From assembly GCA_024679065.1 (NCBI GenBank), contig JAGIQG010000003.1:25916001-25980000 (forward strand): DNA of 64,000 nt, read 5' to 3'. The position numbers and the translations under genes are program-made. Below the pieces are notes generated by a model. That model saw only the letters and a program-made list of their open reading frames with translations. It made no database searches and had not been told where the DNA came from. The DNA is from Sphyrna mokarran (Eukaryota). This document shows positions 299 through 59,494 of this stretch, one piece after another. Position 1 is the stretch's first letter. The number at the start of each line of letters is the position of its first letter.

Positions 299-424
299 CA
301 TCACAAAGAGAAGTGTTTGTCACATTGGTCCTAAATCCAGACTGGCAACTGCAATTGAAGCTTCCAATTGTATTGCTGCATACTTGCTGACAGGTTGAAG
401 TGTTGGTTGCACATTCATCGATAT
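299..424 (-). CDS. cbEGF exon 1 ([42 protein letters not shown])
   Basis: 126 nt, cag|...|gtagga, 6 Cys, D-I-D-E-C and C-x-N-x4-F-x-C consensus. Confidence 0.85.
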
Positions 425-1216
425 CTGTAGGAAAAATGTCAATTCGTGAACATATCAGTATCAATTCAGATCTCTGGGGGTCTGCCAACTATTATTTCCT
501 AAACCATACCAGTCCCAGATAAGATTCATAAGCTCCAGCCTATGAGCTGTGGCCTGTGAAATAGCCAGCAATTTTGAGTGAGGATTGTGAAGGAACTATT
601 AACCCAAGGGACAATGCCTCTTTATTCACCCACATGCTAAGGAAAGCACTAATGCTTCATTAATCACATTTTTTGAGGTCAGTTCATATTGCTCAGTGCA
701 CACCAAAATTTGACATTTCGAAGCAGCAATGTACAGGTAAACCATCATTGCAAGCTTTGATGAAGAGGTCTGAGGTCTCAGGTAGAGTACTTTGACTAAT
801 ATATTGACTTTCTTGGTGTGAACATTCTGCTACTTCCTTATTAGGGAACCATGTTCCCTCCCCATTGATGCTCAACATCAGCAACCCAAAAAAATGCCAC
901 ATCCAGAACTAAAAAGCACTTCCATCTCTCAAACTGCAAAGCACTTGATCCAAAACATAATCCATTGACCCAAATGACTGAATCATAGTTGCAAGTCTCA
1001 GTCTATGAAGTACAATGGAATCTGTAGACAGCAATCCAAGTATAAATATTTCATACCAGCAGATTGTTTTCATTAACCTCTTATTGCTTAATTATAAAGC
1101 CTAGAAGAGCTTGTTTATAGCCATCGAGAATATAATGGAAATTGAGTGGGTTTAGACTATGTGCAATTTGTAAATCAATGGTTTCTAAGAATCTGAATGT
1201 TTGAAGATTTTCCTAA

Positions 1217-1342
1217 CATTACAAAGAGAAGTGTTTGTCACATTGGTGCTAAACCCAGGCTGACAACTGCAATTGAAGCTTCCAATTGTATTGGTGCAGA
1301 TTTGCTGACAGGTTGAAGTGTTGATTGCACATTCATCGATAT
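1217..1342 (-). pseudogene. cbEGF exon 2, open frame but 5' splice site dead
   Basis: + strand reads cctaa|cat instead of cctac|cat, so the donor is GT>TT. Confidence 0.75.
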
Positions 1343-2117
1343 CTGTAGGAAAAGTTAATTCATGAGTGTATCAGAATCAGTTCTGGCATGCTTGAGAAAT
1401 TATTTCCTTCAGCATGCCTGTCCCAGAAAAGGTTCACAAGCTTCAGCCTATGAGCTGCGGTCAGTGAAATAACCAGCATTTTCGAGTGGTAATGGCGAAG
1501 GAATCATTAACTCAAGGGACAATGGCTGTTTCTTCACCTATAATCTAAGAACAGTGCTAATGTTTCATCAATCACATTTTTTGAGGCTAGTTCGTACTGC
1601 TCAGTGCACACCAAAACTTGACATTTTTAACCAGCAATATACAGGTAAATCTACACTGCAAGCTGTGTTAAAGAGGTCTGAGGTCTCAGACAGATCACTT
1701 GGACTAACATATTGACTCTCTTGGCGTCAACATTCTGCTCTTTCCCTGACTGGGAAACCACAATATCTCCCCATTGATGTCAACATTCAGCAACCCAAAA
1801 AAATGCCACATCCAGAACTAAAAAGCACTTCTTTCTCTCAAGCACTTGATCCAAAACATGATCCATTGACCCAAATGTCTGAATCATAGTTGCAAGTCTC
1901 AGTCTATGAAGTACAATGGAATCTGTATTCAGCAATCCAAGTATAAATATTTCATACCAGCAGATTGTTTTCATTAACCTCTTATTGTTTAATTATAAAG
2001 CCTAGAAGAGCTTGTTTATAGCCATCGAGAATATAATGGAAATTGAGTGGGTTTAGACAATGTGCAATTTGTAAATCAATGGTTTCTGAGAATCTGAATG
2101 TTTGAAGATTTTCCTAC

Positions 2118-2243
2118 CATTACAAAGAGAAGTGTTTGTCACATTGATGCTAAACCCAGGCTGACAACTGCAATTGAAGCTTCCAATTGTATTGGTGCAG
2201 GTTTGCTGACAGGTTGAAGTGTTGGTTGCACATTCATCGATAT
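2118..2243 (-). CDS. cbEGF exon 3
   Basis: 126 nt, canonical AG/GT, 6 Cys, open frame. Confidence 0.85.
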
Positions 2244-3033
2244 CTGTAGGAAAAAGTCAATTCATGAGTGTATCAGAATCAATTCAGATCTCAGTGGCCA
2301 GCCAACTATTATTTCCTTAACTATGCCAGTCCCAGATAAGGTTCAGCAAGCTCCAGTCTATTAGCAGTGGCCAGTGAAATAACTAGCAATTTTGAGTGGT
2401 AATGGGGAAGAAAGTATTAACCCAAAGAACAATTCACCTATATTCAATAAAAAACGCTAATGTTTCATTTAGCACATTTTTTGAGGCCAGTTCATTTTGC
2501 TCAGTGCACACCAAAATTTGACATTTCTAACCAGCAATGTACAAGTAAACCTTCACTGCAAGGTGTGATAAAGAGGTCTGAGGTCTCAGACAGATTACTT
2601 TGACTACTATATTGACTCTCTTGGCGTGAACATTCTGCTACTTCCCTGATTAGGGAACCACGTTCCCTCCCCATTGATGTTCAACACTCAGCAACCCAAA
2701 AAAATGCCACATCCAGAGCTGAAAAGCACTTCCATCTCTCAAACTGCAAAGCACTTGATCCAAAGCATGATGGATTGACTCAAATGTCTGAATCATAGTT
2801 GCAATTCTCAAACAGTCTACAAAATAAGTACAATGGAATCTGTAGACTACAATCCAAGTACAAATATTTCATACCAGCAGATTGGTTTTATTAACCTCTT
2901 ATTATTTAATTATAAAGCCTGGAAGGGCTTGTTTCAAGCCATCTAGGATATGATGGAAATTGAGTGGGTTTAGACTATGTGCAATTTGTAAATCAATGGT
3001 TTCTGAGAAACTGAATGTTTGAAGATTTCCTAC

Positions 3034-3159
3034 CATCACAAAGAGAAGTGTTTGTCACATTGGTGCTAAACCCAGGCTGGCAACTGCAATTGAAGCTTCC
3101 AATTGTATTAGTGCAGATTTGTTGACAGGTTGAAGTGTTGGTTGCACATTCATCAATAT
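3034..3159 (-). CDS. cbEGF exon 4
   Basis: 126 nt, canonical AG/GT, 6 Cys. Confidence 0.85.
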
Positions 3160-3911
3160 CTGCAGAAAAAAGCCTATTTGTGAGTGTATCTGTGTCATGT
3201 CAGACCTCAATGATTCTTGCCACTACCATTTTATTATTCATTCCAGGCTGAGACAATGCGTAAAAGCTCCAGTGGCTAGTGGCTGAATCATCAAATTCTA
3301 GTGATAATGGTGAAGGAAAAGTAACACAAAGAGCAAAGGCCATTTATTTACTTAGGTGTATGAAAGGGAATTGTGTTTTATTAATTGCATATTTTTTGGC
3401 CCATTCATGTTAGTTAATACGCACTAAAATTCCAACTGGACGCTTCTAACCAGCAGCAGAAAAAGAGTGTGCGATACTGCGAGCTGTATAGAAACAAGAA
3501 GTGAAATCAAAAAGTTCACTCTGACCAGCATGTTGAATCTTTTGGCTTGGACATTCTGCTCCTTTTCTGATTAGGATACAACGTTATGACCACCCTTGAT
3601 GCTAAACAATGAGTAACCCAGAAAAATGGCTAATCCAAGCGTGCAAAGAATTTGATCCAAAATTCAGAAAATGTAATTGCAGTATTCTAGCTGAATATGA
3701 ATATGAATTTTCCACAATGCAAACCATACTCTGCAAACAAAATGTAATTTTTTTGTTACAGGCAGATTATTTTCCTTAAATGCTTATCATTTAATTGTGA
3801 AGCAACAGCAAGTTTGCTTTTCACAGTCTAAAACATGAAGGAGATTGAAAGGGTTTGTGTAATTCACAAATCAACGGTTTCTGAGAACTGAATGTTGGAA
3901 AGATTTCCTAC

Positions 3912-4037
3912 CATCACAAAGAGAAGTGTTTATCACATTGGTGCTAAACCCAGGCTGGCAACTGCAATTAAAGCTTCCAATTGTATTGGTGCACACTTGT
4001 TGACAGGTTGAAGTGTTGGTCGCACATTCATCGACAT
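3912..4037 (-). CDS. cbEGF exon 5 (DVDEC...)
   Basis: 126 nt, canonical AG/GT, 6 Cys. Confidence 0.85.
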
Positions 4038-4205
4038 CTGTAGAAAAAAGTCAAGTCATGAGTGTATCAGTATCAATTCAGATCTCAACGGGTCTGCCGA
4101 CTATTATTTCCTTAAAAATGCCAGTCCTAGATAAGGTTCACAAGCTTCAGCCTCTGAGCTGCAGCCAATAAAATAACCAACAATTTTGAGTGATGATGGT
4201 GAAGG

Positions 4206-4688
4206 TGCTGGGGAGGAAGGGTGAGAGGGAGGAGGAGGGTATGGGGAGGACAGGTGTCAGATCTCTTGGTAGGAGAGCATCTTAGGAATGGTGATCATAA
4301 TTCTACCTCCTTCATGATAACATTGGAAAGAGATAGGATCAGGCAAGATAGGAAGATGTTTATCTGGAGTAGGGGGAAATATGAAATCATTAGGCAGGAA
4401 ATTGGATGAGTAAACTGGAAGGAGGTGTTCTTGGAGAAAAGAATTGAAGGAAGGTGGTGGATTTTCAAGGAATGTTTGTCTGGAGCTCTGCACGACAACA
4501 TTCCAGTGAGACAAGGAGGTTTTGGTAAGTCGAGAGAACCGCGGTGCACAAAGGTTCTGATGAACCTAGTTAGGAAGAAAAGAAAGTTGTACGATAGGTT
4601 CAGGGAGCTAGGGGATGTTAAGGATCTAAAGGCATATAAGACTTGTAGAAGTGAGCTTAAAAAGGAAATTAGAAGAGCCAGAAGGGGT
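4206..4688 (+). mobile_element. CR1/HER1-like LINE ORF2 fragment (end of endonuclease and linker)
   Basis: Translates as VGEHLRNGDHNSTSF...ELKKEIRRARRG, typical of CR1 ORF2, with an internal stop; interrupts the intron unit. Confidence 0.85.
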
Positions 4689-5178
4689 CAATACTCACTA
4701 AGATTCCAACTGGAGATTTCTAACGAGCAGCAGAAAAGGAAAGCGCAATAATGCAGATTGTGAGAAAGGATGAGTTGATCAAAAAGTTCACTCTGACTAG
4801 CATATTGATTCTCTCAGCATGGACATTCTGCTTCTTTTCTGATTAGGATATCATATTATGACCACTATTGATGCTAAACAATGACTAAACCAGGAAAATG
4901 GCTAATACAAAAGTGCAAAGAATTTGATCCAAAATTCAGAAATCGTAATTCAATGTTCTAGCTGAGTATGAATTTTCTACAATGCAAACCATACTCTGTA
5001 ATCAAAATGTATTTTTTTTGTGATAAGCAGGTTATTTTCTTTAACCATTTATCATTTAATTGTGAAGCAACAGCAAGTCCTTGCTTTTCACAGTCCAAAA
5101 CATGCAGGACATTGAGAGGCTTTGTGTAATTTGCAAATCAACTGTTTCTGAGAATCTGAATGTCTGAAGATTTCCTAC

Positions 5179-5304
5179 CATCACAAAGAGAAGTGTTTGT
5201 CACATTGGTGCTAAACCCAGGCTGGCAGCTACAATTGAAGCTTCCAATTGTATTGGTGCAGATTTGTTGACAGATTGAAGTGTTGGTTGCACATTCATCG
5301 ATAT
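5179..5304 (-). CDS. cbEGF exon 6
   Basis: 126 nt, canonical AG/GT, 6 Cys. Confidence 0.85.
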
Positions 5305-6097
5305 CTGTAGGAAAAAGTCAATTCAGGAGTTTATCAGAATCAATTCAGATCTCAGAGGCCTGCCAACTATTATCTCCTCAAATATGCCAGTCCCACAGTC
5401 CCAGATAAGGTTCACCAAGCTCCAGTTTGCTAGCAGCGGCCAGTGAAATAACGGGCAATCTTATGTGGTAATGGTGAAGGAACATTAACCCAGAGGACAA
5501 TGGCTGTTTATTCAGCTATATTTTTTAAAAAGCGCTAATGTTTCATTTAGCACAATTTTTGAGGCCAGTTTGTATGGCTCAGTGCACATCAAAATGTGAC
5601 ATTTCTAACCAGCAATGTACAGGTAAATTTTCACTGCAAGGTGTGATAAAGAGGTCTGAGGTCTCAGATAGATCACTTTGACTATTATGTTGACTCCCTT
5701 GGTGTGAACATTCTGCTACTTCCCTGATTAGGGAACCGTGTTCCCTCCCCATTGATGCTCAATGCTCAGCAACCCAAAAAAACACCACATCCAGAACTAA
5801 AAAGCACTTCCATCTCTCAAACTGCAAAGCACTTGATCCAAAACATGATCCATTGATCCAAATGTCTGAATCATAATTGCAATTTTCAAACAATGTATGA
5901 AATTAGTACAATGGAATCTGTAGACTGCAAGTCAAGTATACTATTTCATATAGGCAGATTGTTTTCATTAACCTCGTATTGTTTAATTATAAAGTCTGGA
6001 AAGCTTGTTTAAAGCCATCCAGGATGTGATGGAAATTGAGTGGGTTTAGACATTGTGCAACTGTTTCTGAGAATCTGAATGTTTGAAAATTTCTTAC

Positions 6098-6223
6098 CAT
6101 CACAAAGAGAAGTGTTTGTCACATTGGTGTTAAACCCAGGCTGGCAACTACAATTGAAACTTCCAATTGTATTGGTGCAGATTTGTTGACAGGTTGAAGA
6201 GTTGGTTGCACATTCATCGATGT
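6098..6223 (-). CDS. cbEGF exon 7
   Basis: 126 nt, cag|...|gtaaga, 6 Cys. Confidence 0.85.
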
Positions 6224-7188
6224 CTGTAGGAAAAAGTCAATTCAGGAGTGTATCAGTATCAATTCAGATCTCAGGGGGTCTGTTGACCATTATTTCCTTT
6301 ACTATGCCATTCCCAGATAAGGTTCACAAGTTTCAGCCTACGAGCTGCCGCTAGTGAAATAACCAGCAATTTCAAGTAGTAATAGTGAAGGAACTATTAA
6401 CTCAAAGGACAATGGCTGTTTATTCACCTTTATCTGCAGAAAAAAGCAAATTTGCGATTGTATCTGTGTCATGTCAGGCCTCAGGGATCCTTGCCACTAC
6501 CATTTTATTATTCATTCCAGGCTGAGACAATGGATGAAGGCTCCAGCTGTTAGCCATGGCCAATGGCTGAATCTTCAATTCCAGTGATGATGGTGAAAGA
6601 AAAGTAACACAATGAGGCAGGGTCTTTTATCCACCTCAGATGTATGAAAGCGAATTGTGTTTCATTAATTGCATGTTTTTTAGCCAGTTTGCATTGCTCA
6701 ATACTCACTAAAATTCTAACTGGACATTTTCACTAGCAGCAGAAAAGGAAAGTGCGATACTGCAAGCTGTGCAGAAACAAGCAGTGAAATCGAAAAGTTC
6801 ACTCTGACTAGCATATTGACTCTCTCAGCTGGGACAGTCTGCTCATTTTCTGATTAGGATACCATATTATGACCACCATTGATGTTAAACAATGAGTAAC
6901 CCAGAAAAATGGCTAACCCAAAAGTGCAAAGAATTTGATTCAAAATTCAGAAACTATAATTGCAATGTTCCAGCAGAGTATGAATTTTCCACAATGCAAA
7001 CCATACTCTGCAATCAAAATGTAAGTTTTTGTTAATAGGCAGATTATTTTTCTTAACACTTATCATTTAATTGTGAAGCAGTAGCAAGTCCTTCCTTTTC
7101 ACAGTCTAAAATATGCAGGAATTGTGAAGGTTTATGTAATTTGCAAATCAGTTGTTTCTGAGATTTTCAATGTTTGAAGATTTCCTAC

Positions 7189-7314
7189 CATCACAAAAAG
7201 GAGTGTTTGTCACATTGATGCTAAACCCCTTCTGGCAACTGCAATTGAAGCTTCCAATTACATTGGTGCAGACTTGTTGACAGGTTGAAGTGTTGGTTGC
7301 ACATTCATTGATAT
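7189..7314 (-). CDS. cbEGF exon 8 ([42 protein letters not shown])
   Basis: 126 nt, canonical AG/GT, 6 Cys; more diverged than its neighbours. Confidence 0.8.
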
Positions 7315-8077
7315 CTGTAGGAAAAAGTCAATTCATGAGTGTATCTGTGCCATTTCAGATCACAAGGAATATTGCAACTATTATTTTGTTACTCATTCCA
7401 GGCCGAGAGAAGGATTAAAAGTTCCAGGGTCTATTAGCTGTGGCCGGTGGCTGAACTATCAAATACCAATGATGCTGATGAAGTAACAAGTACTTCAATG
7501 GATTAGGGCCATTCATTCCCGGCAATTGTTTGAAAGGGACTTGTGTTTATGTAACTGTGTTTTTTGGCCAGCTCATGTTGCTCAATACTCACTAAAACTC
7601 CAACTACCTGTTTCTAATGAGCAACGGGAGAAGAAAGTATGACACTGCAAGCTGTGCAAAAAAGAGCAGAGATCTCAAATACATTACTGTGACGAATGCA
7701 CTGACACTCTTGCCCTAATATTTTGCTCCTTGCCTGACAGGGGGCCACATTATGATCACCATTGATGCTAAACAATAAACAACACAGAAAAATGGCATGT
7801 TTCAAAGTGCAAAAAACATGCCATTGATCTAAAATTCTAAAATCACTGAACCAGCCAAATATGAATTTTCCACAACAGAAACCTTAATCTTCAATGAAAG
7901 TTTAATTATTTCTTATGGGCAGGTTATTTTCATTAACCTCTTATTGTTTAACTGTGAAGTAACATAAAGTGCAGGTTTGCAGCAGTCTTCAACATGCAGG
8001 ACTTTGGGAGAATTCAGACTTTGCACAATGTTCAAATTAACTATTTCTGACAATCTGAATGGTTGAAAATTTCCTAC

Positions 8078-8203
8078 CATCACAAAGAGAAGTGTTTGTC
8101 ACATTGGTGCTAAACCCAGGCTGGCAACTGCAATTGAAGCTTCCAATTGTATTGGTGCAGATTTGTTGACAGGTTGAAGTGTTGGTTGCACATTCATCGA
8201 TAT
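8078..8203 (-). CDS. cbEGF exon 9
   Basis: 126 nt, canonical AG/GT, 6 Cys. Confidence 0.85.
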
Positions 8204-8467
8204 CTGCAAGTAAAGTCCACCCAAGAATATATCAGTGTCATTTCAGAGAACTGGCTGTATGCCGACTGCCATTTTCTTTTCCATGCCAGTTCCAGATTCA
8301 CAAGCTATACCCTATCAGATGTGGCCAGTGAAATAACCAACAAATTCCACTCATGATGGGGAAGGAATGATTAATTCAAGCAGCCAAGGCTGTTTATTTG
8401 TCTGTATTCTAACAAAAGAATCAGTGTTTCATTAATCACATACTTTGAGGTCAACTCATATTGCTCG

Positions 8468-9022
8468 GTGGGGCCTATTGTGGGTGGATCCTGCTGCCAT
8501 TTTACATTGGGATCGGCCAGGGCTAGAAGGAGGTCAGAGATCATGGTGGATTGAGAGGAGGTGGAAGGTGGTCTGCTGTGAGGGTCTGACTCCTACGGGT
8601 GGTGTCTTCCGGGCTGAGGGAATTGTCACTGTTGGGATGGATGGTGTTGCAGACTGGGGCAATCCGGAAGGGGAGGGGCAGGACTGGCCTAGGAATGCTT
8701 GTAAGGGCCACAAGAGGGCAGTGGGCAGCTTTGGAGGGGCAGCACTGCAAGGATCCCAAGCTGGACAGCAGTAGAAGTGTGCAGCAAATTGCAGGCTGAC
8801 ATATTGGGGCCACTATACATGCACAGAGTTCTGGAACTGTCAGCCTCCAGTTTGAATAGACCTCGCCAATCCCCGAGCTTTTAACGAGACTCACAATTGT
8901 GACTTCTGCAGTGCACTGTGTGTGGGAGATTTGAGTCTGAGGTCCCACTGAAAAAACAATCATAAATTGCACGATTTTACCCACCAATTCAGCATTTATT
9001 CATTTTTGGGAGAATCTCCTCC
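8468..9022. mobile_element. GC-rich non-autonomous DNA-transposon-like insert (family 1), left end deleted
   Basis: GC-rich block ending tttttgggagaatctcctcc immediately before host attgactctcttgg; related copies at 9726, 11087, 16029, 20961 and 25895. Confidence 0.65.
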
Positions 9023-9322
9023 ATTGACTCTCTTGGCATGTTGATCCAAAATTCTGAATTCTGAATTCAAAATTCTGAATCATAATTGCAATTTCCAAAC
9101 TGTCTATGAAATTAGTGCAATGGAATCCATAGCCTACAAGCAAAGTAAAATTATTTCTTATGAGCAGGTTATTTTCATTAACCTCTTATTGTTTAACTGT
9201 GAAGCAACAGAAAATGCAAGCTCGCAGCAGCCTTGAACATGCAAGACTTTAGGAGAATTCAGACTTTGCACAATGTTCAAATTAACTATTTCTGACAATC
9301 TGAATGGTTGAAAATTTCCTAC

Positions 9323-9448
9323 CATCACAAAGAGAAGTGTTTGTCACATTGGTGCTAAACCCAGGCTGGCAACTGCAATTGAAGCTTCCAATTGTATTGG
9401 TGCAGATTTGTTGACAGGTTGAAGTGTTGGTTGCACATTCATCGAAAT
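9323..9448 (-). CDS. cbEGF exon 10 (DFDEC...)
   Basis: 126 nt, canonical AG/GT, 6 Cys. Confidence 0.85.
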
Positions 9449-9725
9449 CTGCAAATAAAATCCATCCAAGAATGTATTAGTGTCATTTCAGAGGTCTGGC
9501 TGTCTGCCAATTGCCATTTTCTTATCCATGCCAGTTCCAGATTCACAAGCTATAACCTATCAGATGTGGCCAGTGAAATAACCAGCAAATTCCACTCATG
9601 ATAGTGAAGGAACTATTAATTCAAGGAGCAAAGCTTATTTATCCACCTGTATTCTAACAAAAGGATCAGTGTTTCATTTATCACATATTTTGAGGTCAAT
9701 TCATTTTGCTTGGTGTGCATTGAAA

Positions 9726-10293
9726 GTGGGTGAGGCCTACTGTGGACAAGTCCAGCTGCCACTTTACATTGGGATTGGTCAGGGCTAGAGGGAGGTCAGA
9801 GATCATGGTGGACTGGGAGGAGGTGGAAGGTGGTTTGCTGTGGGGTCTACTTTGTATGGCTGGTGACTTCCAAGGTGAGGGGGCTCATCAAAGTTGGGGG
9901 GGTAGTGTTGGAGATTGGGGCACTTCGGAACGGAGGCATATGGGGGTTGTCGGGACCAGCTTGGGAATGCTTGTGAGGGCCACAAATGGGCCCTGGTTGG
10001 GTTTGGAGAGGCAGCATTGTGAGGGCCTCGGGTAGGCCAGCAATAGAGCTGGCCAGCAAAGTGCAGGCTAGCATATTGGGGCCACCGTACATGGGTAGAG
10101 TTCCAGAATTGTCAGTCTCTGATGTGAATAGGCCCCACCTCCCTGAACTTTTAATGATATTCACGATTGTGACCTCTGCACAGTGCACAATGTGTGTGAG
10201 ATTCAAATCTGAGCTCCCACTGAAAAACAATCATGAATTGCACAATTTTACCCTCCAATTCAGCGCTTATTCATTTTTGGGAGAATCGCCCAC
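9726..10293. mobile_element. GC-rich MITE-like insert (family 1)
   Basis: Homologous to 8468-9022; ends tttttgggagaatcgcccac|attgactctc. Confidence 0.65.
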
Positions 10294-10691
10294 ATTGACT
10301 CTCTTGGCACGAACATTCTGCTACTTCCCTGATTGGGATACCACAATCATCGTCATTGATGTTACACAATAATCAAACCAGAAAAACACCATGTCAGGAT
10401 GTGCAAGGCATTAATCCAAAACATGATCCTTTGGTCCAAAATTCTGAATCATAATTGCAATTTCCAAGCTGTCTATGAAATAAGTACAATGTAATCTATA
10501 GGCTGCAAGCCAAAGAAAATTATTTCTTATGGGCAGGTTATTTTTATTAACCACTTATTGTTTAACTGTGAAGCAACGGAAAATGCAGGCTTGCAGCAGT
10601 ATTGAACATGCAGGACTTTGGGAGAATTCAGACTTTGCATTATGTTCAAATTAACGATTTCTGAGAATCTGAATGTTTGAAGATTTCCTAC

Positions 10692-10817
10692 CATCACAAA
10701 GAGAAGTGTTTGTCACATTGGTGCTAAACCCAGGCTGGCAACTGCAATTAAAACTTCCAATTGTATTGGTGCAGATTTGTTGACAGGTTGAAGTGTTGGT
10801 TGCACATTCGTCAATAT
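10692..10817 (-). CDS. cbEGF exon 11
   Basis: 126 nt, canonical AG/GT, 6 Cys. Confidence 0.85.
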
Positions 10818-11086
10818 CTGCAAATAAAATCCATCCAAGAATGTATCAGTGTCATTTCAGAGATCTGGCTGTTTGCCAACTGCCATTTTTATACATGCCA
10901 GTTCCACATTCACAAGCTATAGCCTATCAGATTTGGCCAGTATCAGATAACTCGCAAATTCCACAGGTGATGGTGAAGAACTATTAATTCAACAGGCAAA
11001 GGTTGTTTACCCATCTGTATTCTAACAAAAAGATTAGTGTTTCATTAATCACGTATATTGAGGTCAATTCATATTGTGCACTGAAA

Positions 11087-44246: not shown

Positions 44247-44297
44247 CTGTTAGAAAAAAACAAATAAAACGGTGCGGGATACACTTCTAGAGTCATA

Positions 44298-46068: not shown

Positions 46069-46154
46069 AATGTTGTAGAAGATGTACAAATTATTGTAGT
46101 TGTTGAATATTTAGATGTAAAAAATGTCTCAATAGAAATAGTTGTAGAATAACT

Positions 46155-47928: not shown

Positions 47929-48094
47929 CTGTGTAAACAAGATGAAACTTTAGTCTTCAAATATAACATCAATTTAATCTTACCTGTTCCACTTCAATTG
48001 CATTATGTTAATTTTAAAAAAATGTCAGCTGGAATTCTATAGCCCATGGAAAATCCTACCCATGGTTTTATATAATTTTTAAAAAGTAGAATAA

Positions 48095-49228: not shown

Positions 49229-49229
49229 A

Positions 49230-49265
49230 TAATAGCTAGAATGCTTGTAGGAACAGTTGATGTAG
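49230..49265 (-). pseudogene. Truncated mucin-type exon D (TSTVPTSILA...); copies at 52391-52424 and 56771-56805
   Basis: Shared acceptor tttacacag|CTACATCA, cut off after ~11 codons by the Gypsy-like fragment. Confidence 0.6.
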
Positions 49266-49299
49266 CTGTGTAAACAACCTGAAACTCATGGTAATTTTA

Positions 49300-50490
49300 A
49301 AGATGGCTCAGTGCATCTTCAAATTGATTTTTTATATATACACACAATGAAATATCCAACAATACAGCAATACGCTCGCTAGCTCGTACACAGGTTCCTC
49401 CCTGAGTCAGGACCTGTGTCCTTGCTCCCAATTGGCTTGGCTTCCCATGCAGCCTCTCCATAGGGTCCAACCCAAGCACATGGCCCAAACTCTTTATCCC
49501 CTAATTCCTGATTTCACCTATGAATGAAGAAAAAGGATCATCATAAATTATTGGGATGTAAGACACAACAACACATCAGAAATACCCCTTGGAAAATCTC
49601 ATCATAACGTCAATCAATCTGGAGACTTCCAAACTCTGGCGGAACGTTTAAGCTCGGTACTGGATTCCTCAGTGAATAAAGAATCCGGATGGGCAAATGC
49701 AAAAGTCAAACTCATGAATTCTGCATCAACATCCTCCTCAGTAGCTATTGTCTCCTCAGCTTTGGAAATTGCTGGACCCCTTGGCTCCATGTTAACAATA
49801 GGAATCTTTGAATCAGCAACTGGCAACCATGAGCCTGCCACAGGACACACCTGTCGGTCCATGTATCAGGCTCAATTGTTCGACTTTTTTTTACCCGATT
49901 TCCTTGTACAACATAGCAGACCAGTCCTGTACTTTCCACAATTATGCCAGCCATATCAATCCAGCTTTAAAATTCTTTGCCATGACTAAATCATCAACTT
50001 GGAATACTCTGTTACTTTCTCTTGGTTTTCTTTCCAAGAGGCTTGCCTAGCCTCCACCCTTGCTGCCAAAATTGGAAATACCAAATCTGAATGAATTCAT
50101 TGGCAATGTCCCAGTAGTTATGCAGCTAGTGTAACCCCTGTGCTTGCATTTGGCATGGTATTGTATAACAACAAAAACATGGCCAAGCTTAAAAGCTGTG
50201 GCCAATGAAATTGCTTTTCATAGGTGACTTGAACCTTTGTACAGCTGGTTCTGCTAACGCATTGAAAGCTGGATGATAAGAGACCTATTGAAGATGGTGA
50301 ATACCATTTGATGTAACAAATTTTTGAAATTCTTCTGCTGTAAATGCTGTGCCATTGTCTGACTTTAAGACTTGTGGAATGTCATAGATAGCAGAAATCT
50401 GCCACAATTTGCCAATGGTGTCTGTGGCTGTTGTAAACTTCATCAATTGGACATCCAGCTATTTAGAATGAGGATCGGCTTAGATGAGGG
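49300..50490 (-). mobile_element. Gypsy LTR retrotransposon integrase and 3' end, decayed (copy 1)
   Basis: Paralogue of 56850-58048; C-terminal ELKRSARVWKSPD motif. Confidence 0.8.
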
Positions 50491-50654
50491 GCATAGAAGA
50501 TAGAAAAACTACAGCAACAACAGGCCCTTCGACCCACAAGTTGCGCCGAACATGTTCCTACCTACTAGGCTTACCTGTGACCCTCTATCTTACTAAGTCT
50601 CTAAGATAGAGGGTTATAGGTAAGCCTAGTAAGTTAAAAAGCCCCTTGGACATA

Positions 50655-50972
50655 TGAACAGAATTATAAAATCTCTACAGTGCAGAAGGAGGCCACTCAG
50701 CCCATCAAGTCAGCACTAACCACAATCTCAAACAGGCCCTATTCCCAGATGTTTCCCCTGCTATCCCCTAACACTAGGGTCAATTTAGCATGGGCAGTCA
50801 ACCTAACCCCCACACACTTTTGGACTGTGGGAGGAAATCAGAACACCGGGAAGAAACCCATGCAGGGGAGAATGTGCAAATTCCACAGAGACAGTGATCC
50901 ATGGTTGGAATTGAACCCAGTTGCCTGGCACTGTAATGGAGCAGTGCTAACCACTGTGCTACATGCCACCCC
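50655..50972 (-). mobile_element. HE1-like SINE (copy 2), preceded by a LINE 3' tail at ~50492-50600
   Basis: Homologous to 45752-46068. Confidence 0.8.
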
Positions 50973-51066
50973 AAATGTTTTAGAAGATGTAAAGATTATT
51001 GTAATTGTTGAATATTTAGATGTAAAAATGTCTCAATAGAAATAGTCGTACGTAAATTTGATGTAG
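50973..51066 (-). pseudogene. Mucin-type exon C remnant (copy 2); further copies at 54467-54561 and 58518-58611
   Basis: Truncated by the SINE; copies 3 and 4 carry an in-frame TAA and copy 3 has lost its acceptor. Confidence 0.6.
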
Positions 51067-51368
51067 CTGTGTAAACAAAATCAATCTTTCGTCTTTAAAT
51101 ATGACATGAACTTAATCTTACTCATCCAACATAAAGTGCATGCTTTTACTCCTAACATATTTCCAATTTCCAATCAGGATGCCCTAGTTTTCTTGTATTG
51201 TTAATTGCTCTTATTCCAGGTATGATAAAAAAGTGACAAAATGTAATCAGTATTTAAATCAATCATCAACTCTCACAGGATTGAATCATTTTCAGTACCA
51301 TCAGAATGGTACCGGTCCTATTGTTTTTGAACTGATTCATGTTGCTGAACTCATTGTTGTGGACTCAC

Positions 51369-51485
51369 TTGTTAATATTTGAGTGGATCTGTCTGTAGTT
51401 GTTAGTTCTGGTGTACTTGCTGGTATTGTTGTAACAGTTGACTGTTCGGGAGTAGAAGATGTCACAGCGGGATTAGTTGATGTAG
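51369..51485 (-). CDS. Mucin-like exon B, copy 2
   Basis: 117 nt, cag|...A|gtgagt, open. Confidence 0.7.
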
Positions 51486-51544
51486 CTGTGTAAAGAAAAA
51501 TCAAACTTTAGTCTCAAGGTATAACATAAGTTTATTCTGACTTA

Positions 51545-52390
51545 TTCAAGGAGAATGGAGATTTCCCATGAAACACTGATCAAAAAAAGATTGGAGGAAA
51601 TCAATCTGTGGATACTCTAGAGTAGGAGAGAAGGATTCAGGGCACTCTTGCGGCTTTCTCAAAGGGCTCTTGGGAGAAGTTTAGAGAGCAAAAATCTTCA
51701 ACATTATGGAAAACAACCAGAGCTGCACCATTCACTGCCCTATCAAAGATTCAAAGGGCATTCAAAATCTGAGATGTCAGTGAATATCGAGGATGAAGGA
51801 ACATTGAGGACAACTTTGTATAAGACTGTTAGAAAAAGATGTAGAATGATTTCCCATTGATCTTCCAGGAGGACTACTTTCTGTAGGCAGTAGTTATAAA
51901 GTCACACTTCCACACCAAATTGGGAAGAATTGCTGAGAATATGGATATGAGGCAGCCTCAAATTCTGCCATAAGAAAAATTTCCTATAGGCAATCAATTC
52001 AGGACAAGATTGCTGTTTAGGATTCTACAGGTTCAGATGTGCTAAAGATTTGTTGCAGTATCCATGCCAATTCCTTGCTCTGGAGGGAAGACTCTTATCT
52101 GGGACTGGATAGGGCTGCAACTGACTCTCACCCCTTTGAAGGTGTTAGCTCTTTAGCAACATGATCCTCATAAGACTCTAACTTGGACTGAGGTAAAGTC
52201 ATAGAATCGCGAGTGGCAATCTTACCAAAATATTTCCAAATGCCAAATGAATGTGAAAAGAGAGAGAATTGTACCCATTTATTTCAGTGATGTGATCCTG
52301 TGCCATTTAATGCAAAAAATGAGGTAAAGTGTGATTCGCACCAGTTAAGAGAGTGGATGGATTCTATTATTGCCAGAAACCCAGCTGATA
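51545..52390 (+). mobile_element. Decayed Gypsy-like fragment (copy 2, shortened by the deletion that removed exon A)
   Basis: Homologous to 48400-49228. Confidence 0.5.
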
Positions 52391-52469
52391 ATAGCTAGAA
52401 TGCTTGTAGGAACAGTTGATGTAGCTGTGTAAACAAGATGAAGCTTGTAGTAATTTTAACCATGACTCA

Positions 52470-53668
52470 TTGTGACTTCAAGCAATAATTGAATTTTTTT
52501 ATACATATACAATGAAATATCTGACAGAACGGCAATATGCTCGCTCGCTCAAACACAAGTTTCTCCCTGAGCCAGGACCTACGTCCTTGCTCCAAACTGG
52601 CTTGGCTTCCCATGCAGCTTTACCACAGGCTCCAATCCAAGCATATGGTCCACATTCCTTACCCCCTAACTCCAGAGTTCAGCTATGAATGGAAAAAAAG
52701 GACCATCATTAATCATAGGTATTTAAGACACAACAACACATCAGGGATACCCCCTGGAAAAACACATCATAAAGTCAATCAATCTGGAGACTTCTGAACT
52801 GGGGAGGGGAACGTTTGAGCTCGGTACTGGGCTCCTCAGTGAATAAAAAATCCGGGTGGGCAGATGCAAAAGTCAATCTCATTAGTTCTGCGTCAACATC
52901 CTCCTCGGTAGTTAATGTCCCCTCAACTTTGGAAATTGCTGGTCCACTTGGCTCCATATTAATAATAGGAATCTCTGAATCAGCAACTGGCAAACATGAG
53001 TCCTCCACAGGACACACCAGTTGGTCCATGTATCAAGCCCAACTCTCCTTCTAATTGTCGACTTTTTTTTTTACCCAATTTCCTTGTACAACGTAGCAGA
53101 CCAGTCCTGTTGTTTCCACAATTTTACCAGCCATTTCAATCCAGCTGTAAAATTCTTCACCATGACTAAATCATCAACTTGGAAAATTCTGTCAATTTGT
53201 CCTGGTTTTCTTTCCAGGAAGCTTGCCTAGCCTCCACCCTTGCTGCCAAAATTGGAAGTACCAACTCTGAATGGATTCATAGGCAATGTCGCAGTAGTTA
53301 TGCAGCTGGTGTAACCCCTGTGGTTGCATTCAGCATGGTATTGTATGACAACAAGAAACATGGCCAAACATAAAAGCAGTGGCCAATGAAATTGCTTTTC
53401 ATAGATGACTTGAACTTTTGTGCAGCTGGTTCTGCTAACACATTGGAAGCTAGATGGTAAGGGACCTACTGAAGATGGTGAATACTGTTTGATGTAACGA
53501 ATTTTTGAAATTCTTCTGCTTTAAATGCTGTGCCATTGTCTGACTTTCAGACTTGTGGAATGTCATAGATAGCAAAAATCTGCCACAATTTGCCAGTGGT
53601 GATTGTGGCTTGTAGACTTCATCAATTGGACATCCAGGCATTTAGAATGAGGATCGGCCTGGATGAGG
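52470..53668 (-). mobile_element. Gypsy integrase and 3' end, decayed (copy 2)
   Basis: Homologous to 56850-58048. Confidence 0.8.
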
Positions 53669-53821
53669 AACATAGAACATAGAAAAACTAAAGCACAAAC
53701 AGTCCCTTCAGCCCACAAGCTGCGCCGACCATTCCCCTACCTACTAGGCTTACCAATATCCCTCTATCTTACCAAGTCCCTAGTGCTTCTTCAAAATCTC
53801 TTAAAAGATTCTTGGACATAT

Positions 53822-54466
53822 GAATAGCATCATAGAATCCCTACAGTGCAGAAGGAGGCCACTCAGATCATCAAGTCTGCACTGACCACAATCCCACATA
53901 GGCCCTATTCCCAAATGTTCATCCTGCTAATCCCCTAACACTATGGTCAATAAAGCACGGCCAATCAACCTAATCCACACATTTTTGGACTGTGGGAGAA
54001 AGCAGAGCTCCCAGAGGAAACCCATGTAGGGGAGAATGTGCAAACTCCACAGAGACCAGCCCATGGAAAATCCTGCTCATGATTTCATATTGTTGTTAAA
54101 ATGTAGAATAATATACATTGGGGAGAAGTTTAGTATAAAGGGTTAACAGATGGGATATGCTGGTGTATGATGCAGGTGATGATGATATACCACTGATATC
54201 AGTAAGCCATATGTTTGACATTTGCATGAGAGGTTCGAGTTATGCCTTGGAGCAACATGCCTACTTTGTAACATGTTTCGATGTTGCATTAATAAGTGTT
54301 AAGTAAGTACCAGAGGATGTCTACAGTCTGCCAAAGCACCATTTCCCATGACTAGAGTGCAAGTTGGAGGATCTGTCTCAGATCAACTCCACCCGAGGTT
54401 GGAATTGAACTCACGTCCCTGGCGCTATGTGGGAATAGTGCTAATCACTTTGCTACATGTCATCCC
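53822..54466 (-). mobile_element. HE1-like SINE (copy 3) interrupted by a ~330-bp insert (54057-54390)
   Basis: SINE halves flank a copy of the sequence seen at ~48040-48365 and ~55548-55876. Confidence 0.8.
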
Positions 54467-54869
54467 AAATGTTGTAGAAGATGTGAAAATTATTGTAGTT
54501 GTTGATTATTTAGATGTAAAAAATGTCTCAATAGAAATAGTTGTAGAATAATTTGATGTAACTTTGTAAACAAAATCAATCTTTAGTCTTTAAATATAAC
54601 ACAAACTTAATCTTACTTATCCAATATAAAGTGTATGTGTTTAATTCTAACATATATAATATTGTTATTTCCAATCAGGATACCCTTGTATTCTTGTGTT
54701 GTTAATTATTCTTACGCCAGCTGTGATTACAAAGTGACAAAATGTAATCAGTATTTAAATCAATCATCAATTCTCACAGGATTGAATCATTTTCAGTACC
54801 ATCAGAATGGTACTGGTCCTATTGTTTTTGAACTGATTCATGTTGCTGAACTCATTGTTGTGGACTCAC

Positions 54870-54983
54870 TTGTTAATATTTGAGTGGATCTCTCTGTAGT
54901 TGTTAGTTCTGGTGTACTTGCTGGTATTGTAACAGTTGACTGTTTGGGAGTAGAAGATGTCGCAGCAGGATTAGTTGATGTAG
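54870..54983 (-). CDS. Mucin-like exon B, copy 3 (in-frame 3-nt deletion)
   Basis: 114 nt, cag|...A|gtgagt, open. Confidence 0.7.
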
Positions 54984-55306
54984 CTGTGTAAAGAAAAATC
55001 AAACTTTAGTCTCAGAGTATAACATAAGCTTATTCTGAGTTCCTGTACTTAAATAGCATGATGGCAATTCTAATAAAAGTAATGTTCCATTCCGGATGTC
55101 TTTTTTATATCATGCATTTTATTACTTCAGCTCTCATTATGAAGCAACAAACTATCATCAATTCTTCATGCAATCATAACTCTGGAATGAGTTTAATTAT
55201 TTTGAGAAACAACAGCCTGCAATTTCAATTTAAAGGACAATCTGATCCTTAGTATTTCCTATTGCTGTTAGTCTGATATCTGTTGTTGAGCGTGTTATGA
55301 ACTCAC

Positions 55307-55456
55307 TTGCTAAGAGCTGAGTGGAACTCTGTGTAGTTTATACTCCAGGTGAACTTGGTGATGTTGTAGTTGATGTAAAGATTGGTATTGTAGTTATTGA
55401 TTGGACAGGTGTAGAAGGTGTTGCAGCAGGAGAGCTTGTAGGAGGGGCTGATGAAA
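55307..55456 (-). CDS. Mucin-like exon A, copy 3, with a replacement acceptor
   Basis: Original acceptor deleted; gactacag|TT TCA TCA GCC restores a 150-nt phase 1-1 open exon ending A|gtgagt; weak pyrimidine tract. Confidence 0.45.
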
Positions 55457-55599
55457 CTGTAGTCTTTAAATATAACGTCAGTTTTATCTTACCGGTCCCA
55501 CTTCAATTGCATTATGTTAATTTTAAAAAATGCCAACCGAAATTCTCCAGTCCATGGAAAATCCTGCCCATGATTTCATATTGTTGTTAAAATGTAGAA

Positions 55600-56770
55600 T
55601 AATATACATTGGGGAGAAGTTTAGTATAAAGGGTTAACAGATGGGATATGCTGATGTATGATGCAGGTGATGATGATATAGCACTGATATCAGTAAGCCA
55701 TATGTTTGACATTTGCAAAAGAGGTTCGAGTTATGCCTTGGAGCAACATGCCTACTTTGTAAGCTGTTTAGATGTTGCACTAATAAATAAGTGTTAAGTA
55801 AATATCAGAGCATGTCTACGGTTTGCCAACGCACCATTTCCCATGCTTAGAGTGCAAGTTGGAGGATCCATCTCAGAACACCTTTTATGGATTGCATAAT
55901 GATTGAACTGCAAGGAGAATGAAGATTTTCCAGTGAAACACTGATCAAGAAAAAAGTGAAGGAATTCAATTTGTGGATACTCTGAAGTAGAAGAGAAAGA
56001 CCAAGGAACTTGAGGAACTTGTGCTTTTCTCAAAGAGCTCCTGGGAGAAGTTTCAGAAGAGCAAAAATCTTCAACATTATGGAAAACAACCAGAGCTGCA
56101 CCATTCACTGCCCTATCAAAGATTGAAAGAGCATTCAAAATCTGAGATGTCAGTGAACATCGAGGATGAAGGAAAATTAAGGGCAACTTTGTGTAAGACT
56201 GTTAGGAAAAGATGTAGAATGATTTCCAATTGATCTCCAGGAGGACTACTTTCTGTAATCAGTGGTTATAAAGTCACACTTCTCTCTATCTGATATGGTT
56301 CCACACCAAATCGGGAAGAATTGCTGAGAATATGGAGCTGAGGCAGCCTCAAATTCTGCCATAAGAAAAATGTCCTATAGGCAAGCAATTTAGGACAAGA
56401 TTGCTGTTTAGGATTCTACAGCTTCAGGTTTGTTGCAGTATCCACGCTGATTTCTTCTTCTGAAGAGAAGACTCACATCTGGGACTGGATAGGGCTACAA
56501 CTGACTCTCACCCCTTTGAATGTGTTAGCTCTTTAGCAACATGATCCTCTATAGATTCTAACTTGGACTGAGGTAAAGTCATAGAATCACGAGGGGCAAT
56601 CTTACCAAAATAATTGCAAGTGCCAAATGAATGTGAAAAGAGGAGAGAATTGTACCCATTTATTTCAGTGATGTGATCCTGTGCCATTTAATGCAAAAAA
56701 TGAGGTAAAGTATGATTCGCACCAGTTAAGGGAGTGGATGGATTCTATTATTGCCAGAAACCCAGCTGAT
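55600..56770 (+). mobile_element. Decayed Gypsy-like fragment (copy 3)
   Basis: Homologous to 48095-49228. Confidence 0.5.
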
Positions 56771-56849
56771 AATAGCTAGAATGCTTGTAGGAACAGTTGA
56801 TGTAGCTGTGTAAACAAGATGAAGCTTGTAGTAATTTTAACCATGACTC

Positions 56850-58048
56850 ATTGTGACTTCAAGCAATAATTGAATTTTTTTATACATATACAATGAAATA
56901 TCTGACAGAACGGCAATATGCTCGCTAGCTTGAACACAAGTTCCTCCCTGAGCCAGGACCTACGTCCTTGCTCCCAACTCGCTTGCCTTCCCATGCAGCC
57001 TTTCCACAGGGTCCAACCCAAGCACATGTTCCACACTCCTTACCCCCTAACTCCAGAGTTCATCTATGAATGGAAAAAAAGGACCATCATTAATTATAGG
57101 TATTTAAGATACAACAACACATCAGGGATACCCCCTGGAAAAACACATCATAAAGTCATGCAATCTGGAGACTTCCGAACTCAGGGGGAACATTTGAGCT
57201 CGGTACTGGGCTTCTCAGTGAATAAAAAATCCGGGTGGGCAGATGCAAAAGTCAAACTCATTAATTCTGCATCAACACCCTTCTCAGTAGCTAATGTCTC
57301 CTCAACTTTGGAAATTGCTGCTCCGCTTGGCTCCATATTAACAATAGGAATCTCTGAATCAGCAACTGGCAAATATGAGTCCGCCACAGGGCACACCAGT
57401 TGGTCTATGTATCAAGCCCAACTCTCCTCATCTGTTCAACTTTTTTTTTACCCGATTTCCTTATACAACATAGCAGAACAGTCCTGTTGTTTCCACAATT
57501 TTTCCAGCCATTTCAGTCCAGCTGTAAAATTCTTCACCATGACTAAATCATCAACTTGGAAAATTCTGTCACTTTGTCCTGGTTTTCTTTCCAAGAAGCT
57601 TGCCTAGCCTCCACCTTTGCTGCCAAAATTGGAAATACCAACTCTGAATGGATTCATAGGCAATGTCGCAGTAGTTATGCAGCTGGTGTAACCCCTATGG
57701 TTGCATTCGGCATGGTATTGTATGACAACAAGAAACATGGCCAAGCATAAAAGCAGTGGCCAATGAAATTGCTTTTAATAGATGACTTGAACTTTTGTGC
57801 AGCTGGTTCTGCTAACACATTGGAAGCTGGGTGGTAAGGGACCTACTGAAGATGGTGAATAATGTTTGATGTAACAAATTTTTGACATTCTTCTGCTGTA
57901 AATGCTGTGCCATTGTCTGACTTTAAGACTTGTGGAATGTCATAGATAGTAAAAATCTGCCACAATTTGCCAATGGTGTCTGTGGCTGTTGTAGACTTCA
58001 CCAATTGGACATCCAGGTATTTAGAATGAGCATCGGCCTGGATGAGCA
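56850..58048 (-). mobile_element. Gypsy integrase and 3' end, decayed (copy 3)
   Basis: ORF 57843..58097 LIQADAHSKYLDV...KSTTATDTIGKLWQIF...SDNGTAFTAEECQKF matches an rve integrase core. Confidence 0.88.
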
Positions 58049-58201
58049 ACATAGAACATAGAAAAACTACAACACAAACAGTCCCTTTGGCCCACAAGCT
58101 GCGCCGACCTTATTCCTACCTATTGGACTTAACTGTATCCCTCTATCTTACTAAGTCCTATGTACTTCTCCAAAAATCTCTTAAAAGACTCTTGGACATA
58201 T

Positions 58202-58517
58202 GAACAGAATCATAGAATCCCTACAGTGCAGAAGGAAGCCACTCAGATAATCAAATCTGCACTAACCATAATCCCACATAGGCCCTATTCCCAGATGTTT
58301 ACTCTGCTAATCCTCTAACACTAGGGTTAATATAGCATGGCCAATCAACCTAACCCACACATTTTTGGACTGTGGGAGAAAGCAGAGCTCCCAGAGGAAA
58401 CCCATGTAGGGGAGAATGTGCAAACTCCATTGAGACTGTGACCCAAGGTTGGAATTGAACTCAGGTCCCTAGTGCTGTAAGGGAATAATGCTAATCACTG
58501 TGCTACATGTCACCCCA
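58202..58517 (-). mobile_element. HE1-like SINE (copy 4), preceded by a LINE 3' tail (catagaacatagaa) at ~58050
   Basis: Homologous to 45752-46068. Confidence 0.8.
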
Positions 58518-58904
58518 AATGTTGTAGAAGATGTGAAAATTATTGTAGTTGTTGATTATTTAGATGTAAAAAATGTCTCAATAGAAATAGTTGTAGAATA
58601 ATTTGATATAGCTGTGTAAACAAAATCAATCTTTAGTCTTTAAGTATAACATGAACTTAATCTTACTTATCCAACAAAATGTGCATGCTTTTAATCCTAA
58701 CATATCCAATCAGGATGCCCTTGTATTTTTGTATTGTTAATTGCTCTTGTTCCAGCTGTGATTACAAAGTGACAAAATGTAATCAGTATTTAAATCAATC
58801 ATAAACTCTCACAGGATTGAATCATTTTCAGTACCATCAGAATGGTACCGGTCCTATTGTTTTTGAACTGACTCATGTTGCTGAACTCATTGTTGTGGAC
58901 TCAC

Positions 58905-59021
58905 TTGTTAGTACTTGAGTGGACCTCTCTGTAGTTGTTAGCTCTGGTGTACTTGCTGGTATTGTTGTAACAGTTGACTGTTCGGGAGTAGAAGATGTCG
59001 CAGCAGGATTAGTTGATGTAG
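58905..59021 (-). CDS. Mucin-like exon B, copy 4
   Basis: 117 nt, tgcacag|...A|gtgagt, open. Confidence 0.7.
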
Positions 59022-59344
59022 CTGTGCAAAGAACAATCAAACCTTAGTCTCAGAGTATAACATAAGCTTATTCTTACTTCCTGTACTTAAATAGCATGAT
59101 GGCAATTCTGACAAAAGTAATGTTCCATCCAGGATGTCTTTTTAATATCGTGCATTTCATTATTTCAGCTCTCATTATGAAGCAACAAACTATCATCAAT
59201 TCTTTATGCAATTATAACTCTGGAATGAGTTTAATTATTTTGAGAACCATCAGTCTACAATTTCAGTTGAAAGAACAATCTGATCCTTAGTATTTCCTAT
59301 TGCTGTTCGTCTGATATCTGTTGTTGAGCGTGTTATGAACTCAT

Positions 59345-59494
59345 TTGCTAATAGCTGAGTGGAACTCTGTGTAGTTTTTACTCCAGGTGAATTTGCTGAT
59401 GTTGAAGTAGATGGAACGATTGGTATTGTAGTTATTGATTGTACAGGTGTAGAAGATGTCACAGCAGGAGAGCTTGTAGGAGCGGCTGATGTAG
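59345..59494 (-). pseudogene. Mucin-like exon A, copy 4: acceptor intact, no GTGAGT donor
   Basis: Reads GCA AAT GAG instead of GCA A|GTGAG; the frame runs on to a stop at 59250. Confidence 0.5.

Follow-up and report, generated by a model that had tools for sequence, protein, structure and literature searches.

A giant mucin and calcium-binding EGF cassette gene beside a MUC4-like cluster in the shark Sphyrna mokarran, with live and dead exons side by side

A 64,000-nucleotide stretch of the Sphyrna mokarran genome (assembly GCA_024679065.1, contig JAGIQG010000003.1, positions 25,916,001-25,980,000; hereafter the window) carries on its minus strand part of a giant gene, in which mucin-like exons with a high content of proline, threonine and serine (PTS) precede a long array of exons for calcium-binding EGF domains (cbEGF). 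The account that we consider rather probable is that this is a truncated gene beside a MUC4-like cluster, likely an offshoot of it, which likely encodes a secreted glycoprotein of up to ~2,850 residues and is spliced around 28 dead exons. The 864 kb read around the window contain no N bases; window numbering is extended past both ends (contig position = number + 25,916,000), with negative numbers lying to the left.

The gene runs from a signal exon through PTS exons and the EGF array to an end exon of 41 codons (Table 1), and all EGF units in the window lie on the minus strand. The original prediction of a giant mucin and cbEGF cassette gene is thus real and even understated, as the array extends 62 kb beyond the left edge of the window, and its full ~105 kb comprise 85 EGF units, 57 intact and 28 dead. 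Among the best 40 candidates scored, this locus holds the best-scoring matches to the EGF unit, to the signal exon and to the end exon. With every usable exon the predicted product would have ~2,850 residues, namely 26 from the signal exon, 388 PTS, 2,394 EGF and a tail of ~46. The end exon runs into a stop five codons beyond a phase-0 donor site, has poly(A)-type hexamers downstream, and is 81% identical to the C-terminus of the catshark protein XP_072330232. It matches no Pfam family above cut-off, and a search of 1.8 billion proteins returned only the catshark protein and one spurious archaeal match, the Atlas giving no usable match; a module without a name at the C-terminus of secreted teleost lectins may resemble it. 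Two further readings were considered at this end of the gene. That the end exon forms the first half of a SEA domain was not supported, as it shares 23% and 9% identity with the neighbours' presumed SEA exons at a profile probability of 0.1. A conserved block 1.7 kb further on, at first taken for a last exon, recurs elsewhere, including inverted at 86%, and was treated as a repeat. Imperfect scans found no transmembrane (TM), GAIN or seven-transmembrane (7TM) exon up to the signal exon of the next gene at -87,476, which begins 24 kb past the end exon.

Within the window 32 of 41 EGF units are phase 1-1 exons of 126 nt that retain AG and GT, keep their frame open and encode six cysteines; these 32 agree with the earlier count of intact exons, and the earlier total of 40 had overlooked one decayed copy, unit 2. 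The calcium consensus of cbEGF domains consists of six cysteines with D/N-x-D/N-E, an asparagine and an aromatic residue, neighbouring domains being separated by a one-residue linker. In the array E3, the six cysteines and N17 are invariant in all 57 intact units and F22 is present in 53, and the unit scores 43.1 bits with Pfam EGF_CA against a cut-off of 27. The 57 exons represent 47 distinct coding sequences. By analogy with known cbEGF tandems the array would bind calcium and form a rod, whose surface would be rich in N-glycans: its EGF part holds 174 sequons, and all 57 intact units retain the one at N7 and 53 the one at N36. Units 66-84 (-34,317 to -53,877) belong to older subfamilies with shorter introns, and the basic substitutions K16 and R35 remove some of their sequons. 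A single-sequence AlphaFold model of a homologue was unusable (pLDDT, the per-residue confidence score, 40) and was discarded.

The probable origin of the gene is suggested by its neighbourhood. Two MUC4-like genes lie on the same strand 140-560 kb downstream of the array, with the array gene directly upstream of them. Through a neighbouring catshark model, FN3-EGF exons were located 296 and 561 kb to the left of the window; they belong to these two genes, both of which have many PTS exons, FN3, NIDO, AMOP, VWD with GDPH, EGFs and a TM exon; in single-exon Pfam searches VWD and fn3 score above the cut-off, NIDO just under it and AMOP weakly. NIDO-AMOP-VWD with GDPH are features of MUC4. A TNK2-type GTPase-binding match lies 53 kb past the TM exon of the farther gene, TNK2 being the gene that adjoins MUC4 in human. 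The 126-nt EGF exons that follow the VWD in the MUC4-like genes match unit 31 of the array at 24/41 and 22/41 residues and group with the array units at a moderate support of 81/88, whereas seven other EGF exons sampled from these genes match it at only 14-17 residues. Moreover, three similar signal exons ending in [YH]GQ, with a common intron phase, occur in the 864 kb: one in the array gene, one in the next gene and one in the far MUC4-like gene. For NIDO, AMOP and VWD a frog MUC4-like protein matches exons in the two downstream genes and none in the span of the array gene; a neighbour's TM exon significantly matches only the two MUC4-like TM exons, and no convincing TM exon precedes the next signal exon.

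Taken together, these similarities make the array gene look like a truncated offshoot of the MUC4 cluster: on defining domains it belongs neither with MUC4 nor with the ADGRE receptors or fibrillins, though it appears to operate in the manner of an exon-cassette mucin, and it probably descends from the MUC4 cluster. The proposed origin is new, and points away from the EGF-TM7 and MUC13/HEG1-like proteins with which the gene had been compared earlier; of their GAIN/7TM, SEA and TM parts none was found, the SEA model used also missing the neighbour's presumed SEA exon. The flanks had been named as the place to look for signal, SEA, GAIN-7TM and TM exons, and of these only the signal exon came to light.

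The two MUC4-like genes deserve description in their own right. The nearer (contig ~25,455,000-25,715,000, minus strand) has dozens of PTS exons, one of 663 residues, FN3, and two full NIDO-AMOP-VWD sets before a single TM exon, and could represent either a doubled MUC4 or a pair of genes. In the farther (contig ~25,294,000-25,438,000, minus strand) the PTS exons are acidic, tyrosine-rich and of alternating types, a possible sulfotyrosine-like pattern. A small paralogue between the array gene and these two (contig 25,821,150-25,828,530) consists of a signal exon, PTS exons and an end exon with an in-frame stop, with no EGF; as a phase-1 donor precedes its stop, it could belong to the nearer MUC4-like gene as that gene's 5' end.

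The intact EGF exons are under purifying selection. In a codon model, the dN/dS ratio (omega) is 0.49 for the 47 distinct intact exons (twice the log-likelihood difference from omega = 1, 27.2) and 0.83 for the dead ones (1.4; 21 distinct sequences from 23 of the 28 units, with units 52, 54, 62, 64 and 76 excluded for poor alignment). Leaving out cysteine codons raises these values to 0.64 (p=0.002) and 1.01 (p=0.93), respectively. The comparison of intact with broken exons, which had been proposed as a check with values near 1 in intact exons as the adverse outcome, therefore speaks for the gene. As omega is 0.52 for the intact units in the window and 0.57 for units 66-85, selection appears to act along the whole array. 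Thirteen positions, chosen post hoc as invariant in the 57 intact units, are altered in 44 of 245 cases in 20 dead units.

The way in which exons have died is equally informative. Splice sites and reading frame are lost together: 57 units keep both, six keep only the sites, six only the frame and 16 neither (Fisher p=4e-8; with the repeat described below collapsed, p=2e-8). Of the single-base routes to damage, 55 remove a cysteine or create a stop and 12 hit AG or GT. Among the units that keep both sites and a length of 126 nt, none shows a missing cysteine or a new stop. Units damaged only in this manner number zero, while four are damaged only at AG or GT (hand estimate (12/67)^4 = 0.001). 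This pattern indicates that point damage in spliced exons is purged and that exons mostly died via the loss of a splice site. A higher-order repeat of ~4.93 kb, present in four copies of five EGF units each, gives a later view of the same process: intact exons vary at 0 of 378 sites, as against 94 of 3,878 in introns (p=3e-4) and five of 118 in the dead exon (p=7e-4), and the three inner introns of the repeat taken alone, with 36 variable sites in 2,316, still differ from the intact exons (p=0.007). Selection thus appears to have lasted into the period of the repeat, downstream of dead exons.

The original prediction had listed eight broken units in the window, five of them with canonical splice sites, and had concluded that the gene can be full length only if exons are skipped. 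The list is confirmed, with the refinement that the five represent two events, since units 13, 18, 23 and 28 carry a single 8-nt deletion copied by the 4.93-kb repeat; over the whole array six dead units with canonical sites trace to three events. The other 22 of the 28 dead units, having lost a splice site, amount to plain intron, and skipping is accordingly needed less than claimed. For some canonical-site dead exons the claim is supported, as judged from the genomic sequence. The 118-nt exon has six bases absent from every intact unit, which points to its having been dead for long while its neighbours stayed intact, and two of the three invariant intact exons in the repeat sit directly downstream of it. 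That these exons stayed constrained after its death is hard to explain unless the 118-nt exon is skipped. Rescue of dead exons by alternative splice sites was searched for, and only weak options were found, such as a CCT|GTATTT donor that would leave a 78-nt in-frame piece of the 118-nt exon.

How freely the exons are combined is a separate matter. In an accordion scheme like that of the original prediction, inclusion of every EGF and PTS exon might be stochastic or regulated, which would produce isoforms of many lengths, and transcripts that contain a dead exon would be destroyed. The resulting MUC4-derived secreted mucin would have its length set twice, once in the germline, where single-domain exons are born and die, and again in each cell by combinatorial inclusion of the 57 near-identical cbEGF exons. 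If so, the products would be calcium-stiffened, N-glycan-coated rods of a few to 57 domains, and the old frameshifted exons would act as filters that bias output through nonsense-mediated decay. The symmetry of all exons and their near-identical splice sites favour such a scheme, as do the five canonical dead exons in the window, which score like intact ones and whose tolerance leaky inclusion would explain. The automated catshark models also differ in PTS boundaries and include an isoform, X6, without the EGF exon, and the integumentary mucin FIM-C.1 of frog is, in the part of the source available, polymorphic by splicing (PMC7177656). However, these catshark isoforms are gene models of a gene with one or two EGFs. 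By hand calculation, if all exons shared an inclusion probability p, a fraction (1-p)^5 of transcripts would escape the five dead exons, which comes to 3% if p=0.5 and to 33%, with ~11 EGFs, if p=0.2. The tolerance of three extra copies of the dead exon is easier to understand if that exon is specifically silent, and selection on intact exons spans the array. We therefore regard free combination as doubtful, and a twice-set length likewise as a tentative idea; the tripling of the 118-nt exon without its being purged suggests that it is specifically silent, favouring a mostly fixed long isoform.

A rather unlikely alternative is that the gene is recently dead, having been functional while the array grew and being now silent, or cut short at unit 11 after seven EGFs. 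It would account for the death of 28 of 85 EGF units and of 10 of 16 PTS units in the window, for the retroelement remnants inside the gene and a near-intact long interspersed nuclear element (LINE) 1.8 kb past the end exon, and for the six frameshifted exons that retain AG and GT. Against it stand the signal exon, the end exon and 57 units, all intact, the selection that reached into the period of the 4.9-kb repeat downstream of dead exons, and the age of the 118-nt exon, whose neighbours are still intact. A pseudogene in long decay, considered earlier, is contradicted by the omega values and by the lack of variation in the intact exons of the repeat. The LINE copy mentioned (-67,534 to -65,777) is 98% identical to one 63 kb away, which points to a recent insertion.

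Still less probable is that the end exon is skipped and the array serves as an optional 5' extension of the downstream MUC4-like gene, yielding a giant membrane-anchored mucin. The strand is the same, the last EGF exon has a phase 1 compatible with the downstream PTS exons, and a signal exon of the shared type is missing from the near MUC4-like gene between -95 kb and -201 kb, so that its 5' end may be the small gene at -87 kb. In catshark, furthermore, the A-type end exon comes after an FN3-EGF pair, which in S. mokarran is part of the MUC4-like gene, and parts have thus been rearranged between the species. Such a transcript would cover ~550 kb, however, and 25 kb past the array would run through a second block of promoter and signal exon (71% identical over 300 nt), as well as through the poly(A)-type hexamers behind the end exon, at which the catshark models terminate. 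An inflation of copy number by assembly error, suggested by two 4.9-kb repeat copies that are 99.8% identical, is very improbable and would affect a few units at most, as the other copy pairs are 97.5-98.7% identical, 47 distinct sequences occur among the 57 intact exons, and the region is free of N.

In the truncated-offshoot account, partial copying of a MUC4-like gene would have retained the signal exon, PTS exons and a single 126-nt cbEGF exon, while FN3, NIDO, AMOP, VWD and the membrane anchor would have been shed. The EGF exon would then have multiplied, together with its intron, through unequal crossing-over. Because every exon is phase 1-1, a copy losing AG or GT would drop out harmlessly and then decay, and a point change breaking an exon that is still spliced would be purged. 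The few frameshifted copies with AG and GT would probably be silenced in most transcripts, the remainder being lost to nonsense-mediated decay. In the product ~390 O-glycosylated residues would be followed by a rod, stiffened by calcium and comprising up to 57 cbEGFs and 174 sequons, and finally by a short tail; the protein might serve as a secreted component of mucus or jelly.

Several observations weigh against this account. The EGF tree rests on 43 columns and its key branch is not starred. An omega near 0.5 is weak constraint; most variable sites of the repeat come from one copy, and its intact exons also have no synonymous changes, such that gene conversion may contribute. Dead units 11, 13, 18, 23 and 28 have ordinary splice scores (acceptor 19-23, donor 17.1; means of intact units, 21.5 and 15.7), and nothing in the sequence accounts for the silencing of the canonical dead exons, only unit 48 having a weak donor. 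The 3' end is uncertain, as the end exon has a good phase-0 donor and no following coding exon was found. Finally, five of the six usable PTS exons in the window depend on a non-ancestral internal CAA|GTGAGT donor, which makes their phase 1-1 inferred.

The PTS part is the more eroded of the two. In-frame splicing is possible for six of the window's 16 candidate units, and of these only the 198-nt exon retains the ancestral donor; the candidate at 44246 has no homologue in our comparison and is doubtful. Deaths (10 of 16) thus come to somewhat more than the half estimated earlier, and the earlier statement that all exons are phase 1-1 holds for the 126-nt EGF exons and for the single PTS exon with its old donor. 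Mild support for the use of the internal donor may come from four copies of the shorter PTS exon, which vary at nine of their 114 sites, compared with 53 of 336 flanking sites (p=0.04). The eight usable PTS exons, two of them outside the window, encode 388 residues of which 53-65% are P, T or S. Decayed remnants of LINE and long terminal repeat (LTR) type were recognized by eye at 59865-64000, 46160-47023, 49800-50450, 53000-53650 and 57300-58000; the PTS unit at 47035 is interrupted by one LINE, and duplication of the PTS blocks has carried an integrase-like remnant along.

The elasmobranch character of the glycoprotein, as originally proposed, is upheld by the closest EGFs, which are those of catshark (88-93%) and skate (78%). 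The models concerned (catshark XP_072330233-42, XP_072330229-32 and GCB77993.1; skate XP_078266272) have between them a signal, PTS and EGFs of the same type (78-93%), with zero to two such EGFs in catshark and three in skate, these being counts in gene models and not genomic counts. Catshark models have the same 41-residue end exon and stop there without a TM; the catshark gene with the closer end exon (81%) differs from the array gene in having FN3 and another EGF type. With MUC4 and MUC4-like mucins (e.g. frog XP_066462113) the array gene has in common its cluster, strand, N-terminal PTS, type of signal exon and the kinship of the post-VWD EGF; it differs in the absence of detected NIDO, AMOP, VWD and TM and in the amplification of one EGF 85 times. 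A survey of 2016 states, in its accessible portion, that in previous work of its authors the deepest branch with a Muc4-like protein was Xenopus (PMC4948705).

Among other cassette systems, the PTS domain of chicken Muc13 is made of one-repeat exons, and its length variation was proposed, in the sections available, to arise via recombination and splicing (Lang et al. 2006, PMC1552070). Muc13 has SEA and TM, and its cassettes are PTS, whereas those of the array gene are mainly cbEGF, a third of them dead. Xenopus FIM-C.1 is described, in the part of the text available, as secreted, with cysteine-rich modules, and highly polymorphic by alternative splicing (PMC7177656); it has at least five TFF modules and no EGF array. 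In the array gene, the symmetry of the exons and the recent duplications would allow isoforms or alleles of differing length of this kind. In fibrillin, according to the accessible text, calcium extends tandem cbEGFs into rods (PMC7545174). Fibrillin-type arrays share tandem cbEGFs, the one-residue linker and the calcium consensus; the array gene differs in having no TB or hybrid domains found (LTBP2 proteins gave no non-EGF match by tblastn in 464 kb) and in units that are near-identical recent copies with two to four sequons each. The EGF-TM7/ADGRE receptors (CD97, EMR2) have cbEGF exons in common, and ADGRE5 is the best PDB match, as expected for a generic cbEGF; in the array gene, unlike these receptors, GAIN/7TM was not detected, the EGFs follow a mucin part and the neighbourhood is different. 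GPS-bearing proteins and AGRE1 gave no non-EGF tblastn match for GAIN, GPS or 7TM in the 464 kb, the distant queries having limited sensitivity, and a SEA hidden Markov model found no domain at the locus, although it also misses the neighbour's presumed SEA exon. As to tissue, shark skin mucus glycans are mostly O-linked in the accessible part of one report (PMC10532229), so skin is not favoured for an N-glycan-rich protein; the term 'EGF' is absent from the main text of a shark skin proteomics paper (PMC10707392). No paper describing the array gene was found in the literature searched, most subscription journals and supplements lying outside that search.

Two further observations concern other EGF and neighbouring exons. 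A cluster of EGF exons lies elsewhere, on contig C1104 (~84,031,000-84,054,000), with matching hits on a second contig (C1077:14,605-19,676). Leucine-rich repeat (LRR) exons of 168-171 nt, NLR (NACHT-LRR)-like as named by eye, lie directly upstream of the array gene (contig ~26,044,000-26,064,000 on the minus and 26,113,000-26,124,000 on the plus strand).

Table 1. Features of the array gene in window numbering, extended past both ends of the window; contig positions in brackets.
Feature	Position	Strand	Remarks
Signal exon	starts 89,126 (26,005,126)	-	69% identical to catshark N-terminus
PTS exon, 201 nt	68,017-67,817	-	intact; outside window
PTS exon, 150 nt	65,102-64,953	-	putative, via internal donor; outside window
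PTS region, 16 candidate units	44246..59494	-	duplicated blocks of 3.5-4.4 kb; 10 dead
PTS exon, 117 nt	58905..59021	-	putative, via internal donor
PTS exon, 114 nt	54870..54983	-	putative, via internal donor
PTS exon, 117 nt	51369..51485	-	putative, via internal donor
PTS exon, 150 nt	47779..47928	-	putative, via internal donor
PTS exon, 117 nt	47339..47455	-	putative, if internal CAA|GTGAGT donor is used
PTS exon, 198 nt	44677..44874	-	ancestral donor intact
EGF units 1-41	299..42409	-	126-nt phase 1-1 cbEGF exons; 32 intact
EGF unit 2	41210..41331	-	decayed, both splice sites gone
EGF unit 6	38098..38223	-	acceptor gone, internal stop
EGF unit 7	37299..37424	-	acceptor gone, five Cys
Higher-order repeat, ~4.93 kb	10435..30759		four copies of five EGF units, 97.5-99.8% identical
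EGF unit 11, 133 nt	30433..30565	-	7-nt insertion, internal stop, canonical AG/GT; first exon needing skipping
EGF unit 13, 118 nt	28736..28853	-	8-nt deletion, stop, canonical AG/GT
EGF unit 18	23802..23919	-	repeat copy of 118-nt dead exon, canonical AG/GT
EGF unit 23	18870..18987	-	repeat copy of 118-nt dead exon, canonical AG/GT
EGF unit 28	13938..14055	-	repeat copy of 118-nt dead exon, canonical AG/GT
EGF unit 40	1217..1342	-	donor gone; frame and six Cys intact
EGF units 42-85	-383 to -62,137	-	25 intact, 19 dead
End exon, 41 codons	-63,820 to -63,941 (25,852,059-25,852,180)	-	after last EGF

The idea that exon cassettes control mucin length has already been published, with chicken Muc13 and frog FIM-C.1 as precedents, which limits the surprise of the present gene. 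It nevertheless offers a clean case of birth-and-death evolution of exons within one gene, with live and dead copies side by side, and its 85 copies allow exon loss, mostly through loss of splice sites, to be measured. It also raises the question of how a full-strength frameshifted exon is silenced among near-identical neighbours. Because the catshark and skate models carry only 0-3 EGFs, proteomics against existing gene models could miss the product. More generally, the locus points to an expanded shark MUC4 cluster and, possibly, to a secreted mucus protein that is rich in N-glycans and lacks VWD domains.

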